Below, piece by piece: positions 22,280-29,490 of a stretch of DNA of 33,574 nucleotides; position 1 is the stretch's first letter, and every line of letters starts with the position of its first letter. The DNA is from an uncultured Bacilli bacterium (lineage in GTDB: Bacteria; Bacillota_I; Bacilli_A; RF39; UBA660). The stretch lies in the NCBI GenBank assembly GCA_910578745.1, contig CAJTSN010000007.1:2855-36428 (forward strand), given 5' to 3'. The notes beneath the pieces were generated by a model that was given only the letters and a program-made list of their open reading frames with translations, was not told where the DNA came from and ran no database searches. A program made the translations under genes and the position numbers.

Positions 22280-22828
22280 ATGATTTATATGCATAGTGAT
22301 TTTATAAAGCGTGGTTATAAGGATTATCATGTAAAAAGATTGATGAAAGAGGGAAAACTTTATTTCATTGAAAAAGGTGTATATTCCACAAAAAAAGAGA
22401 TTAACTATTTTGAGTATATTGTAAAAAAACATCCCAATGCAATCATTGATTTATGGACAGCGTGTTATTGTTATGGTTTTTTAAAGGAAAATAAAATGCC
22501 CTATGTGATTGCTACAAAACAAAAAGATAGAAAAATAAAAAAAGAAAATTTAAAACAAATATTTATGAGTGATGACTTATATAATCTTGGTATAAATATA
22601 TTAAAGTTTGAAGGAGTCAAAATAAAAACCTTCGATATAGAACGTTTACTTATAGAAGTGGTTCGTAATAAGACAAATATTGATTATGAAGTATATGAAG
22701 AGATTATACAAAGTTATAGAAAATTAAAAAATCTACTCAATAAGAGAAAACTTCAATCTTATCTACCCTTCTTTAAGGACAAGAGAATTGTAAATCGAAT
22801 CGCCACCGAAGTTTTTGATGAAAAATAG
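22280..22828 (+). CDS. AbiEi-family (type IV toxin-antitoxin antitoxin-like) wHTH protein, with no adjacent AbiEii
   Basis: The N-terminal L..EGKLYFIEKGVYS pattern, the central AIIDLWTACYCYGF... segment and FDIERLLIEVVRN resemble the AbiEi pattern (l..G.l.ri.rGvY / sAl..hgl / ERTl.D). Assigned from memory of the family, not from a search. Confidence 0.5.
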   Translation: MIYMHSDFIKRGYKDYHVKRLMKEGKLYFIEKGVYSTKKEINYFEYIVKKHPNAIIDLWTACYCYGFLKENKMPYVIATKQKDRKIKKENLKQIFMSDDLYNLGINILKFEGVKIKTFDIERLLIEVVRNKTNIDYEVYEEIIQSYRKLKNLLNKRKLQSYLPFFKDKRIVNRIATEVFDEK

Positions 22829-22899: not shown

Positions 22900-22928
22900 T
22901 TGCAAATAATGTCGAATCATGCTATCAT
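22900..22928 (+). promoter_or_regulatory. Candidate sigma-A promoter of the response-regulator/kinase operon
   Basis: TTGCAA (22900-22905), a 17-nt spacer, then TATCAT (22923-22928). Confidence 0.55.
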
Positions 22929-22957
22929 AAAAAAGTAAAATAGGGGAGGATAGAGTG

Positions 22958-23671
22958 ATGTTCATTTTATATGATGATCATGATTTGTTCATGGAAAAAA
23001 GTAAAAGTATTATCGATTCCATTGGTAATATGATGGGAGGAACGAGTATAAAATGTTTCTCTAAATTTGATGAAGATTTTGAACAAGTCATTCAAGACAA
23101 AAGCTGTAAAAAGATTTATGTTTTAGATATTGAAGTTCCGGGAAGTATTTCAGGGATTGAAGTAGCCAAGAAAATAAGAAAATTCGATTGGGATAGCATC
23201 ATTATAATGGTAACTTCTCATACAGAATTAGGGTATGAAGCTTTAAAGGCTCAAATTATGCTATTAGATTTTATTTCTAAACATAGTGATTGGGAAAATA
23301 ATCTGCGTAGTGCTTTAACAAAGGCAGTATCTTTGTTAGATAATAAGAATGTAATTATTTTAGATTCGAATGGGTTAACGTATCGAATACATACAACAGA
23401 TATTGTCTATATACTCAAAGATTCTAAAGAGAGAAAATGTACGATTAGGACACTAAATGATAAAATTATGGTATCTAAAAGTATCACAGATTTAGGAAAA
23501 AGGTTAGATAGGAGGTTTTTTCAATCACATAGAAGTTGTTATGTAAATATAGAGCAAATATCTACAGTAGATTGGAGAAATAGTGTCATACATTTTAGGA
23601 CAGGAGATACAGTAGATTATCTAGCTCGTGATAAGAAGAAGGAGTTAAGGATCCTAACACCAGTATGTTAG
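22958..23671 (+). CDS. LytTR-family response regulator (AgrA-like)
   Basis: Receiver domain (YDDHD acidic pocket, VLDIEVPG phospho-Asp context, MVTSH). C-terminal LytTR domain (IVYILKDSKERKCTIRT...RFFQSHRSCYVNIEQI). GGAGG lies 8 nt upstream of ATG 22958. Confidence 0.85.
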   Translation: MFILYDDHDLFMEKSKSIIDSIGNMMGGTSIKCFSKFDEDFEQVIQDKSCKKIYVLDIEVPGSISGIEVAKKIRKFDWDSIIIMVTSHTELGYEALKAQIMLLDFISKHSDWENNLRSALTKAVSLLDNKNVIILDSNGLTYRIHTTDIVYILKDSKERKCTIRTLNDKIMVSKSITDLGKRLDRRFFQSHRSCYVNIEQISTVDWRNSVIHFRTGDTVDYLARDKKKELRILTPVC

Positions 23672-24972
23672 AAATAAGTAGTACGTTTTTATCATTTATG
23701 ATAACTTATGTGGTAGATTGTGTTTTATTTAAGAAATTGACTGATTCGAAGAGGAAGCTAATCACAATAAAAAATATAGTATTTCTAGTAATAATGAGCA
23801 TGATTTCATGTTTCATTGATGTAAATTATGGAGACTTTCCTAAGTTGATATTTTGTAATATACAGATATGTATATTATATAAATTAGTATTTGATATGTC
23901 TATGTTAAAATCAATACTGTTTACAATAGCAATAGTAATAGTATCAAATATAGCAGAGTATATATTTGTACTGATTTTTATTATAGGTATGAAAATAGAT
24001 ACTTCATATTTCACAAGTAATATAGCTGGATACTGGATTGTTAATTTAAGTGTTACCCTTTTATATTATCTTTTGCTTATAATGAAACCAGTTAGATGGC
24101 TTGTTCAAAAGAGTCTTAATTTTTTTAGTGAAAGTTATAAGATAGAAACAGTAATATTATTATTATTGTCAATGTTTTTAATAGCGGGTCTTACTTATCC
24201 AATAATAATGACATCATCTGTTAGAGAAAAAATCACATATAGTTTAGTTTTTATAGCATTTGTATATTTTATAGGAAATTTCTTTTATCAACGTTCAAAG
24301 AATGGGGAGCTGAAAAAAGCGTATGATTATTTATTAGAATATGTAAAAGAGTATGAAAAAGCATTAGATGAAAAGAGTAAAGCACAACATGAATACAAAA
24401 ATCAATTATCTGTTATAAGAGGAATGGCAAATAAGAATAATAAAAAGTTACACAAATATATAGATGATATGTTAGAAATAGAAGAGAATAAGGAAAGTCG
24501 AATCTTAAACAACTTAAAGCCACTACCAACAGGAGGATTAAAGGGATTAATTTATTATAAGACAGCCAGTATGATAAAGAAGAGTATGGAAGTACATGTG
24601 AATGTAGATAGTACATTAGAAAATGAGGAGTATTGGAATTTATGCGAGAAGAATCTACATAGTATTAGTACAATAGTGGGAGTTTATTTAGATAATGCAA
24701 TAGAAGCCGCAGAAAATGCAGAGAAGAAGTTTGTAATTATAGATATAGATGTAGAGGAAGGAAATATCATATTTAGTTTTTCAAATACATATGAAGGACA
24801 TATAGAAGTAGGGAAGATGGATAAGCAAGGGTATTCAACAAAGGGAAAAAAGAGGGGGTATGGATTATCACTTGTACAGGATATTTTAAACAAGAATACA
24901 TATTTATCGCAGGAGAGAGAAATGAATGGTATATTTTATGTACAAAAACTAATTATCCAAAATAAAAAGTAG
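23665..24972 (+). CDS. AgrC-like (HPK10) GHKL sensor histidine kinase
   Basis: Polytopic N-terminal sensor of about six TM helices, H-box AQHEYKNQLSVIRGM, N-box YLDNAIEAAENA, and G-box KGKKRGYGLSLV. 7-nt overlap with the regulator gene. Confidence 0.8.
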   Translation: MLEISSTFLSFMITYVVDCVLFKKLTDSKRKLITIKNIVFLVIMSMISCFIDVNYGDFPKLIFCNIQICILYKLVFDMSMLKSILFTIAIVIVSNIAEYIFVLIFIIGMKIDTSYFTSNIAGYWIVNLSVTLLYYLLLIMKPVRWLVQKSLNFFSESYKIETVILLLLSMFLIAGLTYPIIMTSSVREKITYSLVFIAFVYFIGNFFYQRSKNGELKKAYDYLLEYVKEYEKALDEKSKAQHEYKNQLSVIRGMANKNNKKLHKYIDDMLEIEENKESRILNNLKPLPTGGLKGLIYYKTASMIKKSMEVHVNVDSTLENEEYWNLCEKNLHSISTIVGVYLDNAIEAAENAEKKFVIIDIDVEEGNIIFSFSNTYEGHIEVGKMDKQGYSTKGKKRGYGLSLVQDILNKNTYLSQEREMNGIFYVQKLIIQNKK

Positions 24973-24989
24973 AGTTTGATCTACTTTTT
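24964..24989. terminator. Shared bidirectional terminator between the kinase gene and agrD
   Basis: AAAAAGTAGA (24964-24973), loop gtttga, TCTACTTTTT (24980-24989). The core stem is GTAGA/TCTAC, flanked by an A5 and a T5 run. The two stop codons (TAG 24970-24972 and CTA 24981-24983) pair with each other. Confidence 0.5.
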
Positions 24990-25103
24990 CTCAATTAAAC
25001 TTGCAGGCATTTCTGGTTCATCTAGCCATCCATGATTACAAGATGAATCCCCGCTTGCTCCAAATGTAGAAATCATAAGTAAAGTTTTTGCGATAAATGA
25101 CAT
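24981..25103 (-). CDS. agrD: AgrD-like cyclic (thio)lactone autoinducing-peptide precursor, 40 aa (not in the ORF track)
   Basis: My translation of the minus strand is MSFIAKTLLMISTFGASGDSSCNHGWLDEPEMPASLIEKK. SD AGGAGGG (25110-25116) lies 6 nt before the ATG. The gene starts 44 nt downstream of agrB. It has a hydrophobic leader, a single Cys and an acidic DEPEMP tail, which is the AgrD layout. Confidence 0.75.
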   Translation of the reverse strand: MSFIAKTLLMISTFGASGDSSCNHGWLDEPEMPASLIEKK

Positions 25104-25147
25104 TTTTTTCCCTCCTATTCTTTTTTACATTATAGATGGTGATTAAA

Positions 25148-25759
25148 TTATAGATTATAACGCATTACATAGTTTTTGTAATTGTTATATGGTAAGTGAA
25201 ATAAACGATATGTAAGTGGCAAAATCATAATTGATTCTACGCATACACTAAACAGTATTAAGTTAGAAATTGTACTATTTGAAATTAGGATGGAACTTAT
25301 TATAAAAACAGTACATAATATTGTAGATATAATTTTTTGTTTTTCTCGTTTCTCCTTATAGATAATTGGTGCCTTTTTTGTATCTGCTGGAGCATATACA
25401 AGAAATAAAATAATAGCAATAATGCCTAATATTATTTTTATTTGTATAGGGATTACGATGTTCTTTGCTAAAAAAGGTAGTGTTAAAAAAATCATAGAAG
25501 AAGAACATAAACAAATCCAACTTTTTGTAGCATGTAATCCACAAGCATATTTCCTTAATAAATTAAAGAAAATAAACAGAATGAGTAGTTCTTTTCCAAT
25601 TCCTAATATGAATGCGATAGGGATTATAATTAATGATTTTGTAACAGTTAAATAAAAACTCTCTAAACCGTAGCGGTATTCATCTAACTCAATGTCCGTT
25701 AGATTTGGATATTCTTTTTTTAAAATACCCAGAGTTTTTTTTAAATAGTATTGTTTCAC
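25148..25759 (-). CDS. agrB: AgrB-family membrane peptidase (AgrD processing and cyclisation)
   Basis: 203 aa, polytopic. LRKYACGLHATKSWICLCSS contains the conserved His and Cys context of AgrB (R.y.GG.HA....C). Confidence 0.85.
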   Translation of the reverse strand: MKQYYLKKTLGILKKEYPNLTDIELDEYRYGLESFYLTVTKSLIIIPIAFILGIGKELLILFIFFNLLRKYACGLHATKSWICLCSSSMIFLTLPFLAKNIVIPIQIKIILGIIAIILFLVYAPADTKKAPIIYKEKREKQKIISTILCTVFIISSILISNSTISNLILFSVCVESIMILPLTYRLFHLPYNNYKNYVMRYNL

Positions 25760-25795
25760 TTTTCTATCACCGCATTTATGATAACAAATAAAAAT

Positions 25796-25816
25796 ATAGA
25801 ATGAGTTAGATTCTAT
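25796..25816. promoter_or_regulatory. 7-7-7 inverted repeat in the agrB leader/promoter region
   Basis: ATAGAAT (25796-25802), spacer gagttag, ATTCTAT (25810-25816), 37 bp upstream of the agrB start. Confidence 0.35.
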
Positions 25817-25871
25817 TTATAGGGGGTAATATTTATTTTAAAGTTTCTATTGGTAAAAATAAAACAAAAAA

Positions 25872-25901
25872 TTACATTTCAAGTATTAAAAATGACATTT
25901 C
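25872..25901. promoter_or_regulatory. LytTR-type direct repeat (9 bp, 12-bp spacer, 9 bp), candidate binding site of the adjacent AgrA-like regulator
   Basis: TTACATTTC (25872-25880), 12-nt spacer aagtattaaaaa, TGACATTTC (25893-25901). Similarity extends upstream, giving 13 of 15 identical positions over AAAAAT[T/G]ACATTTC. Confidence 0.5.
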
Positions 25902-25913
25902 GCAAAACTGTTA

Positions 25914-25942
25914 TTGAGCTTTAATTTAAAAACTGGTAAAAT
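25914..25942 (+). promoter_or_regulatory. Candidate sigma-A promoter (extended -10) reading toward the csp gene
   Basis: TTGAGC (25914-25919), a 17-nt spacer ending in TGG, then TAAAAT (25937-25942). It begins 12 bp after the direct repeat. Confidence 0.5.
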
Positions 25943-25949
25943 TTAACAT

Positions 25950-25972
25950 GTTTCCGCAGACACTACGGAAAC
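25950..25972 (+). other. 5'-proximal stem-loop of the predicted csp leader
   Basis: GTTTCCG (25950-25956), 9-nt loop, CGGAAAC (25966-25972), at the predicted transcript 5' end. Confidence 0.4.
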
Positions 25973-26097
25973 AAAAGGGAGTGGCTTATAGGGATACAAG
26001 ATTTGTCGAAATTTTTGGGTTATATTTTGTTGAATTTATAAGGTTACTAAGGTATATTTAAAGTGTAAGCAATTTTACTAGAAGGGAGATTTATGAA

Positions 26098-26313
26098 ATG
26101 ATAAAGGGTAAGGTAAAATGGTTTAATAATGAGAAAGGATACGGGTTTATAGAGTATAGTGATCGAGAAGATATATTTGTTCACTATTCTTCTATATTGT
26201 CAGAAGGTTATAAGACCTTGGTAGAAGGACAATATGTAGAGTTTGAGCTTGTAAGAACAGATAAAGGTTTGCAGGCAAAGAATGTAATTGAAATTAAAGC
26301 TACTTTGGTATAA
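26098..26313 (+). CDS. Cold-shock protein, CspA family
   Basis: [14 protein letters not shown] (RNP1) and DIFVHYS (RNP2), 71 aa. SD GAAGGGAGA upstream. Confidence 0.95.
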
Positions 26314-26327
26314 GGTAGTTTTTTTCT

Positions 26328-26355
26328 TTGAAAACTTCTCTTTTTATGTTATACT
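26328..26355 (+). promoter_or_regulatory. Candidate sigma-A promoter of hpf (extended -10)
   Basis: TTGAAA (26328-26333), a 16-nt spacer ending in TGT, then TATACT (26350-26355). Confidence 0.5.
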
Positions 26356-26377
26356 AACATTAGAAAGGATGATTTGA

Positions 26378-26908
26378 ATGAGAATAAATGCTCGTGGTAG
26401 CAAATTAGAGGTTACCGATGCGATAAGAGATTATATCAATAAAAAAATCGCAAAGCTTGATAAGTATTTCGAAAATCCTGATGAATATACAGCGAATGTT
26501 TTAATTAAAACGATAGGCAATAGCCAAACAGTGGAGGTCACAATTCCTATTCGAAAGGTGATTTTAAGAGCAGAAGAAAGTAGTGATGATTTATATAAGT
26601 CTATTGACTTAGTTAGTGAAAAGCTAGAAAGACAAATTCGAAAGAATAAGACACGACTTCTTAATAAAAAGGGACAGGAAACAATATTCATGTTTACTTT
26701 ATCCAATGATGAGAAAGAGGAAGAAGAGACTGGTGTAATTAAGAAAAGAAAACAAGTGGATATGAAACCAATGAGTGAAGAAGAAGCGATTCTCCAACTA
26801 AATTTAATAGGACATGATTTTTTCTTATTTGAAGATATGGATACAAATATGCCAGCAGTTGTTTACAAAAGAAAAGATGGAAATTACGGTGTTATAGAAA
26901 TGAAATAA
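26378..26908 (+). CDS. hpf: Ribosome hibernation-promoting factor, long form
   Basis: MRINARGSKLEVTDAIRDYINKKIAKLDKYF N-domain plus the C-terminal dimerisation domain (KPMSEEEAILQLNLIGHDFFLFED...VVYKRKDGNYGVIE). Confidence 0.9.
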   Translation: MRINARGSKLEVTDAIRDYINKKIAKLDKYFENPDEYTANVLIKTIGNSQTVEVTIPIRKVILRAEESSDDLYKSIDLVSEKLERQIRKNKTRLLNKKGQETIFMFTLSNDEKEEEETGVIKKRKQVDMKPMSEEEAILQLNLIGHDFFLFEDMDTNMPAVVYKRKDGNYGVIEMK

Positions 26909-26931: not shown

Positions 26932-27003
26932 GCTTATCTATTAGGAATGTCTATGTTTTTTTCACTTTTTTTGATAAAATAGATGTGGGAAAGGTTGATG
27001 TTT

Positions 27004-29490
27004 ATGAAATTTTTGAGAAGAATTTTTGATACAGAATATAAAGAATTAGAAAAGTTTAAAAAAATTGCAGAAGATATTATGGCATTAGATGAAGAATATA
27101 CAAAATTGACGGATGAGGAACTTAAAGAAAAAACAGTTGAATTTAAAGAAAGATTAAAAAATGGAGAAACATTAAATGATATTCGTGTAGAAGCTTTTGC
27201 GACGGTTCGTGAAGCTGCTTATCGTGTGATTGGAGAAAAACCTTACTTTGTTCAAATTTTGGGAGGACTTGCAATTCATGAAGGAAATATTGCTGAAATG
27301 CGTACTGGTGAAGGTAAAACGTTGACTTCTACAATGCCAGCTTATTTGAATGCTTTAACTGGAGAAGGAGTGCATATTATTACAGTCAATGAGTATTTAG
27401 CAGAAAGAGATGCTCAGTGGATGGAAAAAATCTATCAACTCTTAGGATTAACAGTAGGTATTAATTACCGAGAACTTACACCAAGTGAGAAGAAAAAAGT
27501 TTATGACTGTGATATAACTTATACAACCAATAATGAATTGGGTTTTGATTATTTACGTGATAACATGGTTGTAAAAGCACAGGATAGAGTACAAAGACCT
27601 CTTAATTTTGCTATTATTGATGAAATCGATTCTATTTTGATTGATGAGGCAAGAACACCACTTATTATTTCTGGTGGACGAATGGATTCTGCTAATCTAT
27701 ATATGGACACAGATAAGTTCGTAAAAACTTTAAAGGAAAATAATGGTTATATTTATGATGAAAAAACCAAAGCAGTTACTTTGGATAATGAAGGAATGAA
27801 ATTAGGAGAAAAGTATTTTAAGGTTGATAATTTATATGATATTAGCAATACAAATCTCGTTCATTTCATTACACAAGCATTGAAAGCAAATTATGCAATG
27901 AAATGTGATGTGGATTATGTTGTTAAAGAAGGAAGAGTTATTATTGTAGACCCTTTTACAGGTCGTTTAATGGAGGGACGTACTTTTTCTGATGGGCTTC
28001 ATCAAGCAATTGAAGCAAAAGAAGGTGTTGAAATTCAAAGAGAGATGAAGACACTAGCGACAATTACTTTTCAAAATTTGTTTCGAATGTATAAAAAACT
28101 TTCTGGAATGACTGGTACAGCCAAAACAGAAGAAGAGGAATTCCGTGATATTTATAATATGTATGTTATTCAAATTCCTACAAATAGACCTGTTGCTAGG
28201 GTAGATTATGGTGATTTAATTTTTACGACGAAAAAAGGAAAATATAAGGCAATTGTAAATGAAATTAAAGAACGACATGCTAAGGGTCAACCCGTTTTAG
28301 TGGGAACAATTGCGGTAGAGACAAGCGAATTATTAAGCTCTATGTTAAAAAAAGAAGGAATTAAACATGAAGTATTAAATGCGAAAAATCATGCACGTGA
28401 AGCCGAAATTATTGCCCATGCTGGAGAAAAGGGGTCAGTGACCATTGCTACGAATATGGCTGGTCGTGGAACGGATATTAAAATTAGTGATGAAGTGAAA
28501 GAACTTGGAGGTTTATTTGTAATTGGAACAGAAAGACATGAGTCAAGACGTATTGATAACCAATTACGTGGTCGTTCAGGTCGTCAAGGAGATCCGGGTG
28601 CTTCTCAGTTTTGTGTATCATTTGAAGATGAACTTATGGTTCGTTTTGGTGGAGAACGTGCGAAGGCTGCACTTTCCCGTGTAGGTGCAGATGAAGATAT
28701 GTCACTTCGACTTGGCTTTGTTTCCAAATCTGTTGAGTCAGCTCAAAAAAGAATTGAAGGAAATAATTTCGACTCAAGAAAAAATTTATTACAATATGAC
28801 GATGTCATCAATAAGCAAAGGGAATATATTTATGAAAGAAGAAATGAAATTCTAGATTCTGAATCGATTCATGATATTGTCTTAGAAACTTTTAAAAATT
28901 TTATTGCTAGTTTTGTACAAGATCATATTGCTCCTGAGGATAAATTAACAGAGGAAGATTTAAAAGAAATTTTGGAATATACAAATGAGCATTTATTGAA
29001 AAATAAATTGTCTTTGGAACAATTGAGTGACAATATTGATGAATTGATTATTGATATTTATGATAGAACTGTTAAGGAATATGAAGAAAAATTAAGTGCA
29101 CTGCCAGCAGAGATAACCAATGAATTTGAAAAGGCGATTATGCTTCGAGTAATTGATACAAGATGGACGAATCATATTAGCACAATGTCTAATTTAAGAG
29201 AAGGAATTGGCTTACGTGGGTATACTGAAAATCCACTTAGAGCTTATACTGTAGAGGGATATGAGCTTTATGAACAACTATTAGATGCCATTGATAATGA
29301 AGTTACTTTATTTTTACTTAATGCTGAGATAAGACAAAATGTAGAAAGAGAGCAAGTAATTAAAGGAGAAGCCGTAAATGATGCTTCTAAACTAAAGAAA
29401 AGTGGACCAAAAAGGGTAGAAAAAATAGGTCGAAATGACCTGTGTCCATGTGGTTCGGGCAAAAAATACAAGCAATGCTGCGGAAAGTGA
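27004..29490 (+). CDS. secA: Preprotein translocase ATPase SecA
   Basis: MRTGEGKTL Walker A, IIDEIDSILIDEARTPLIISG DEAD-like motif, TNMAGRGTDI, and C-terminal Zn motif CPCGSGKKYKQCCG. ATG 27004 lies 9 nt after GGGAAAGG (alternative ATGs at 26983 and 26998). Confidence 0.95.
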   Translation: MKFLRRIFDTEYKELEKFKKIAEDIMALDEEYTKLTDEELKEKTVEFKERLKNGETLNDIRVEAFATVREAAYRVIGEKPYFVQILGGLAIHEGNIAEMRTGEGKTLTSTMPAYLNALTGEGVHIITVNEYLAERDAQWMEKIYQLLGLTVGINYRELTPSEKKKVYDCDITYTTNNELGFDYLRDNMVVKAQDRVQRPLNFAIIDEIDSILIDEARTPLIISGGRMDSANLYMDTDKFVKTLKENNGYIYDEKTKAVTLDNEGMKLGEKYFKVDNLYDISNTNLVHFITQALKANYAMKCDVDYVVKEGRVIIVDPFTGRLMEGRTFSDGLHQAIEAKEGVEIQREMKTLATITFQNLFRMYKKLSGMTGTAKTEEEEFRDIYNMYVIQIPTNRPVARVDYGDLIFTTKKGKYKAIVNEIKERHAKGQPVLVGTIAVETSELLSSMLKKEGIKHEVLNAKNHAREAEIIAHAGEKGSVTIATNMAGRGTDIKISDEVKELGGLFVIGTERHESRRIDNQLRGRSGRQGDPGASQFCVSFEDELMVRFGGERAKAALSRVGADEDMSLRLGFVSKSVESAQKRIEGNNFDSRKNLLQYDDVINKQREYIYERRNEILDSESIHDIVLETFKNFIASFVQDHIAPEDKLTEEDLKEILEYTNEHLLKNKLSLEQLSDNIDELIIDIYDRTVKEYEEKLSALPAEITNEFEKAIMLRVIDTRWTNHISTMSNLREGIGLRGYTENPLRAYTVEGYELYEQLLDAIDNEVTLFLLNAEIRQNVEREQVIKGEAVNDASKLKKSGPKRVEKIGRNDLCPCGSGKKYKQCCGK

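Follow-up and report, generated by a model that had tools for sequence, protein, structure and literature searches.

The analysed stretch of DNA, referred to as the window (33,574 bp), comes from an uncultured Bacilli bacterium of the mouse gut and encodes all four components of an agr system, i.e., AgrB, AgrD, an AgrC-like kinase and an AgrA-like LytTR regulator. The gene calls made in an earlier note on this DNA, around a direct repeat lying between agrB and a cold-shock gene (csp), were upheld by domain matches. The agr part of the locus contains the following features:

22900-22928, plus strand: sigma-A promoter (TTGCAA-17-TATCAT) driving the regulator-kinase operon; devoid of a repeat pair
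22955-23671, plus strand: AgrA-like response regulator with a receiver domain and a LytTR DNA-binding domain (PF04397, 6.5e-14), best NCBIfam match AgrA; probable binder of the repeat
23665-24972, plus strand: AgrC-like sensor histidine kinase (GHKL), full-length alignment to AgrC
24981-25103, minus strand: agrD, autoinducer precursor MSFIAKTLLMISTFGASGDSSCNHGWLDEPEMPASLIEKK (TIGR04223, 20.6 bits versus a cut-off of 19)
25148-25759, minus strand: agrB, peptide-processing membrane protease (PF04647, 1e-34)
25778-25786, minus strand: agrBD promoter, extended -10 TGtTATCAT, with equivalent boxes in the related loci L001, L002, L004 and L005

The agr genes are arranged in two convergent operons, agrBD and regulator-kinase, and not in a single autoinduced agrBDCA operon. 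The extended -10 of agrB, common to the window and L001, is located 18 nt before the GTG start codon. The AgrD core reads ...GDSSCNHGW(L) and is followed by DEPEMPASL, with a single Cys for the thiolactone ring; an acidic tail of the DEPEMPASL type is the usual AgrD recognition tail. The regulator gene is adjoined by a 182-aa ORF (22280-22828, plus strand), which is 53-56% identical in L002-L005, L034, L039 and L046 and gave only weak Pfam hints (DUF2204, nucleotidyltransferase-like family). A TGTCGAA heptamer was noticed at 22910-22916, within the spacer of the regulator-kinase promoter, and the corresponding promoters of relatives have in common an extended -10 'AAATATGGTAAAAT' and a 'GCAAAC' motif, which precedes the ribosome-binding site by some 10 nt. 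A same-species contig (L083) seemed to represent a strain devoid of the regulator, but it was rejected as such since the contig simply ends there. The csp-agrB spacer is identical in all same-species contigs.

On the other side of this spacer, csp is oriented divergently to agrB and followed by hpf and secA. The features of this part are:

25872-25880, plus strand: direct repeat 1, TTACATTTC (LytTR frame ACATTTCAA, 25874-25882)
25893-25901, plus strand: direct repeat 2, TGACATTTC (LytTR frame ACATTTCGC, 25895-25903)
25914-25919, plus strand: -35 TTGAGC of the distal, repeat-associated csp promoter; TATTGA is conserved in the sub-clade of the window, L001, L002, L004, L005 and L046
25934-25942, plus strand: extended -10 TGgTAAAAT of the distal csp promoter, 17-bp spacer from the -35
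25949-25973, plus strand: 8-bp hairpin, located at the predicted 5' end of the distal transcript, TGTTTCCG...CGGAAACA
26004-26020, plus strand: TGTCGAA-ATT-TTTGGGT box of the 7-3-7 direct-repeat type, upstream of the proximal promoter
26030-26058, plus strand: proximal sigma-A csp promoter TTGAAT-17-TATATT (housekeeping module), conserved, 40 nt before the start codon
26098-26313, plus strand: csp, 71-aa cold-shock-domain protein (CSD match 1e-26), probable regulated product
26296-26325, plus strand: probable intrinsic csp terminator, a 12-bp A/U-rich stem followed by U7 (z -3.1)
26328-26355, plus strand: hpf's own promoter, TTGAAA-16-TGtTATACT
26378-26908, plus strand: hpf
26983-29490, plus strand: secA

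The two repeats, TTACATTTC and TGACATTTC, match at 8 of 9 positions and are separated by a 12-bp spacer, so that the 9-12-9 direct repeat with 21-bp phasing proposed in the earlier note was borne out. The extended repeat (AAAAATKACATTTC) matches at 13 of 14 positions, and the window and L001 do not differ in the core of repeat 1. When the 338-bp region between csp and agrB was shuffled 5000 times with its dinucleotides preserved, an 8/9 repeat containing two or more G/C at period 21 was obtained in 3.6% of cases and a 13/14 repeat at this period in 0.02%. Scanning of the whole window with a clade-wide half-site matrix built from relatives revealed the pair as the top one (21.2 bits), with the runner-up pairs scoring no more than 15.9 bits and all lying inside coding sequences, in agreement with the view that a single repeat pair is visible here. 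The pattern T[TG]ACATTTC-N12-T[TG]ACATTTC likewise had one exact match in the 33.5 kb of this genome covered by the search for operators and for other LytTR regulators, namely this pair. Outside the csp-agrB spacer, no further operator copies were found in the window, upstream of the regulator gene or in the 5-9 kb of each related locus, with the exception of the second csp of L007.

LytTR operators dissected experimentally consist of 9-bp repeats with 12-bp spacers, precede the -35 by 4-11 bp (in most cases 10 bp) and are frequently combined with an extended -10 (PMC6193735). In the AgrA/ComE/HdrR class of operators, spacers range from 11 to 13 bp. LytTR-type geometry, already attributed to the site in the earlier note, is present in the window, with its 12-bp spacer, a gap of 10 bp on the plus strand between the LytTR-frame repeat 2 and the -35 TTGAGC, and the extended -10. 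At the level of sequence, the family consensus half-site (TA)(AC)(CA)GTTN(AG)(TG) (PMC8826819) has 8 specified positions, of which ACATTTCAA and ACATTTCGC match 6 each; both miss the last position and carry T at the most conserved G of this consensus. Half-sites of the ACCGTTCAG type were found in some relatives. The pair is oriented toward csp and away from agrB.

The promoter reading TTGAGC-17-TGgTAAAAT was present as claimed, and the leader of about 150 nt into csp that had been proposed for it measured approximately 149 nt from the predicted distal transcription start (25948-25950, at the foot of the hairpin) to the csp ATG (26098). No plus-strand terminator was found between this start and csp. 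Having a fair -35 and an extended -10, the distal promoter may fire without an activator and show some constitutive activity. A small ORF (25948-26061, 37 aa) would begin at the predicted 5' end of the transcript, without a ribosome-binding site. The proximal csp promoter is an element absent from the earlier note, and a long csp leader arises only because a second, presumably regulated promoter lies upstream of this housekeeping one. The csp terminator was overlooked by a consensus scan.

A TGTCG box of near-invariant sequence (TGTCGAA-N3-TGTnGnn) was observed immediately 5' of the proximal csp promoter in the window and in L025, L054, L035, L043, L053, L061, L068 and L076. In several relatives it takes the form TGTCGAA-NNN-TGTCGAA, with two or three perfect heptads at a 10-nt register. 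The arrangement recalls CtsR operators, which have a 7-3-7 direct-repeat layout. The TGTCGAA box was not significantly enriched in the window, and the TGTCG box is not general in regulator promoters (6 of 53 relatives).

Public RNA runs provided no more than sparse Logan contigs of low depth, which may derive from RNA or from DNA and in which no 5' end was mapped. One 155-nt contig, from a run guessed to be RNA, spans positions 25972-26126 and thus runs from the leader into csp. A metatranscriptome of a strain of about 90-92% identity contained contigs in agrB, csp, hpf and secA, also with no 5' end.

To compare the site among relatives, an AgrB scan with one genome retained per species was used, which resulted in 80 loci. 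These relatives are metagenome-assembled genomes (MAGs) of uncultured gut Bacilli labelled 'uncultured Bacilli/Tenericutes', 'Candidatus Coprosoma' etc. (1.2-1.34 Mb for complete MAGs), a group that we take to be the GTDB orders RF39 or RFN20. The csp gene was divergent from agrB in 73 of the 80 species-level genomes, and the usual gene order was secA-hpf-csp <> agrB-agrD >< kinase-regulator. Across these loci the identity of AgrB fell to 40%, as compared with 80-90% for Csp. In small genomes, gene order may stay conserved even where genes are not functionally linked. In a more distant lineage (L014, L032 and L050), agrB is not located beside csp and is divergent from a small gene, the product of which is presumably a PTS EIIB domain; the spacers of these three loci contain different repeats, of the (A/G)GTTAAC type.

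A motif-free test was performed on the zone 150-240 nt before the csp ATG in 58 non-redundant loci, with 12-mer self-matches counted for each period from 14 to 29. Period 21 was detected in 25 of the 58 loci and each other period in 0-6; with a stricter threshold, the counts were 19 loci for period 21 versus 0-2 for the others. The same test applied to the agrB-proximal zone gave only a marginal 21-bp peak. A clearly scorable repeat was present in only about 40% of related loci. Among the 24 loci with a scored pair, -10-like hexamers followed repeat 2 at 30 nt in 9 loci and at 32 nt in 10, and the distance from the repeat to the agrB start varied across relatives from 106 to 146 nt. Because of the fixed spacing to the -10, the variable distance to agrB and the period-21 signal in the csp zone, the repeat belongs to the csp-side promoter. 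The order of repeat, -10 and csp is conserved in many relatives, and the assignment of the site to a plus-strand promoter reading into csp was thereby corroborated. The flavour of the half-sites differs between lineages (ACATTTCAAG, GCATTCAGAC, ACCGTTCAGA, GCGTTGGAGC and GCATTCGTGC) and the geometry remains constant. The alignment of the window with L001 showed an identity of 85% for the repeat, 87% for the agrB -10 region, 91% for the leader and 94% for the proximal promoter; the DNA between the repeat and the agrB -10 reached 53% and was essentially unalignable.

In five loci (L043, L053, L061, L068 and L076) two csp genes are present, in the region about 200-800 nt upstream of agrB, and the promoter modules are divided between them. 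The hpf-adjacent csp ortholog (83-87% identical) of this split lineage has only the TGTCG boxes and the proximal promoter, and the agrB-adjacent paralog (60-69% identical) has only the 21-bp repeat together with an extended -10 and a short leader (about 25 nt). A duplicated csp that retains a repeat and a -10 of its own was observed in L007 and L008, at a distance of 640 nt from agrB. A repeat with an extended -10 was also observed in L065 (3513-3880), where it drives a 67-77-aa ORF in place of an intact csp paralog; this ORF resembles csp in its ribosome-binding site and in its C-terminus (...ATLV) and may, judging from these sequence features, be a decayed or diverged csp paralog.

Systems of the agr type are classically autoinduced from a LytTR site before agrB. 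In eight of the related genomes, the csp-directed pair was accompanied by an agrB-directed one, and each of the two had a promoter of its own. The second pair, in the opposite orientation and 85-116 nt from the agrB start, was found in L002, L007, L011, L013, L018, L047 and L057. The agrB-directed pairs have their own -35 or extended -10 at the same spacing, as exemplified by L002 with ACATTTCAT-N12-ACATTTCGC-10-TTGAAT-16-TGaTACCAT. The csp-directed and agrB-directed pairs resembled each other at 15.5 of 24 positions within a genome versus 11.9 between genomes (permutation p = 0.0005). In a version of this comparison free of the matrix, the genome's own pair was among the top 10% for 40% of the genomes, and z values reached up to 10.8. 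Repeats of the same flavour before agrB therefore tie the csp site to the agr regulator. At the agrB site, autoinduction by the local regulator is to be expected; the covariation is thus the strongest evidence at hand for an action of this same regulator at the csp site. L001, the closest relative of the window (AgrB 91%), lacks an agrB-directed pair, as does the window itself, where a weak candidate noticed by eye, ACTTTAAAA-N12-CCTATAAAT, was discarded because of its score. In the genome of the window, agrBD is apparently transcribed from the extended -10 promoter, with no operator dedicated to it.

Taken together, the data point to the repeat pair as a predicted operator that would serve the distal csp promoter and be bound by the AgrA-like LytTR regulator, whose gene (22955-23671) lies 2 kb away; we assign a probability of approximately 0.7 to this reading, which is drawn from sequence comparison. 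According to the proposed mechanism, AgrB would process and export the AgrD-derived peptide, and the AgrC-like kinase would sense the peptide and phosphorylate the regulator. Two regulator molecules, presumably dependent on this phosphorylation, would then bind head-to-tail at ACATTTCAA-N12-ACATTTCGC, 10 bp upstream of the -35, and assist RNA polymerase at TTGAGC-17-TGgTAAAAT. The resulting transcript would start near 25949, pass through the housekeeping promoter and csp and end at the terminator near 26325, and at high cell density the Csp RNA chaperone would be raised above its housekeeping level. In this clade csp would thus occupy the position of the staphylococcal RNAIII. Of the quorum control suggested in the earlier note for csp or its leader, the part concerning csp is retained through this predicted operator; the leader RNA as a target is not.

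The last point concerns the possibility that the distal promoter makes an RNAIII-like regulatory leader RNA, with csp as a passenger. The leader is indeed in the RNAIII position, divergent from agrB, has a length of about 149 nt and is 91% identical in L001, where the hairpin at 25949-25973 shows a G-C to G-U change. However, conservation of this hairpin across the clade was absent, RNAalifold applied to 12 leaders returned a consensus fold with 0 pairs, the leader folded no better than shuffled sequences (z -0.5), and an Rfam cmscan of positions 24900-26500 at E up to 1 gave one spurious snoRNA match, leaving the cspA thermoregulator unmatched. The conserved blocks within the leader are DNA promoter elements, and in the lineage with split csp paralogs the leader is dispensable, as the repeat-driven promoter lies about 25 nt before the csp start codon. 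The split paralogs, the lack of a conserved leader fold and the lack of an Rfam match indicate that the selected product is the Csp protein and not the leader RNA, and the RNAIII-like long leader is considered very improbable. The earlier note had also envisaged that the pair is, or is also, the agrBD autoinduction site, acting through a minus-strand promoter such as the weak -10 TAAAAT at 25840-25835. Such a role would be classical for agr, and several relatives do have an agrB-directed site. The TAAAAT box is present about 29-31 bp from the repeat, a LytTR-like distance, and the half-site AAATGACATTT is nearly palindromic, so that the minus strand resembles the plus strand at 18 of 24 positions. 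The pair is nevertheless directed away from agrB, with its minus-strand reading scoring 0.7 bits versus 21 bits for the plus strand, and the relatives use a separate, opposed pair for agrB. The position of TAAAAT is not conserved even in L001, where it is displaced, the stretch separating the repeat from the agrB -10 is unconserved (53%), and the conserved agrB promoter TGtTATCAT lies about 85 bp off. Autoinduction of agrBD from this site is accordingly regarded as unlikely.

The binder could also be a non-LytTR regulator, e.g., one dimer per near-palindrome AAATGnCATTT, two helical turns apart, or the repeat could be a protein-free A/T-rich upstream element of a constitutive promoter. Both would be compatible with the internal near-palindromy of the half-sites in the window, with the reasonable -35 and -10, and with the bare 8/9 repeat at period 21 occurring in 3.6% of shuffles. 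The palindromic-operator reading was rejected, as relatives with GCATTCAGAC, ACCGTTCAGA or GCGTTGGAGC half-sites conserve period 21 and not the palindromy. Pairs of the same flavour before agrB in the same genomes, and the poor -35 region of the distal csp promoter in most relatives, as expected of activator-dependent promoters, also argue against this group of explanations, which is judged quite improbable. The operator function for the AgrA-like regulator, directed at csp, remains the preferred reading.

The operator type itself is well known. The direct outputs of agr known from pathogens are RNAIII, phenol-soluble modulins (PSMs), proteases and toxins, and the understanding of agr rests almost entirely on such organisms. 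In the searchable literature, no report was found of agr in RF39-type bacteria or of csp as a direct AgrA target, and neither a conserved csp target in the RNAIII position nor a csp site more conserved than agrBD autoinduction was found there. The comparative signal, drawn from about 70 species of uncultured gut bacteria, suggests that agr has a different direct target here, a conserved one, namely an RNA chaperone. A wider proposal, for which we see about even odds, is that across the clade a cold-shock-domain RNA chaperone is the conserved primary direct output of agr, in the functional slot of RNAIII, with the csp site more conserved than agrBD autoinduction and with one copy of a duplicated csp dedicated to quorum control. 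If true, cell density would be coupled to global post-transcriptional control via a protein RNA chaperone, which suggests a route from a density signal to a global change of RNA handling in bacteria with very few regulators. The organisms concerned cannot yet be grown. The naturally co-varying operator/regulator pairs form a set for studying LytTR specificity.

Among known systems, the long 5' UTRs of the cspA family resemble the locus in having a leader of about 150 nt from one csp promoter, with U-rich stretches and a 5' hairpin. The long 5' UTR of E. coli cspA is a thermosensor. The UTR of S. aureus cspA is processed by RNase III and involved in auto-regulation (PMC5815144). Unlike these UTRs, the csp leader described here has no Rfam match and no conserved fold.

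The ComE/BlpR/PlnC-type and other LytTR regulatory systems share with the locus the repeat length, the 12-bp spacer, the 10-bp gap and the extended -10 (PMC6193735), as well as a repeat sequence that is poorly conserved between species and a geometry that is strictly conserved. Those systems regulate their own operons, bacteriocins or competence genes, whereas csp is the conserved target here and the regulator gene shows no evident self-regulation.

A parallel in layout is provided by the agr P2/P3 region of S. aureus, whose AgrA boxes drive agrBDCA and RNAIII. There, a LytTR regulator of an AgrBDCA-type peptide system likewise acts at imperfect direct repeats, which have a 12-bp spacer and immediately precede the -35, and a divergent target promoter lies beside agrB. 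Two opposed pairs, one for each promoter as in P2/P3, are present in the relatives L002, L013, L018 and L057, whereas the window has no agrB-directed pair. The core of the half-site is ACATTTC here and ACAGTTA in S. aureus agr. Unlike in S. aureus, the genes form two convergent operons, with a repeat-free promoter of the regulator-kinase operon, and the divergent target is the gene of a cold-shock protein instead of the structured RNAIII.
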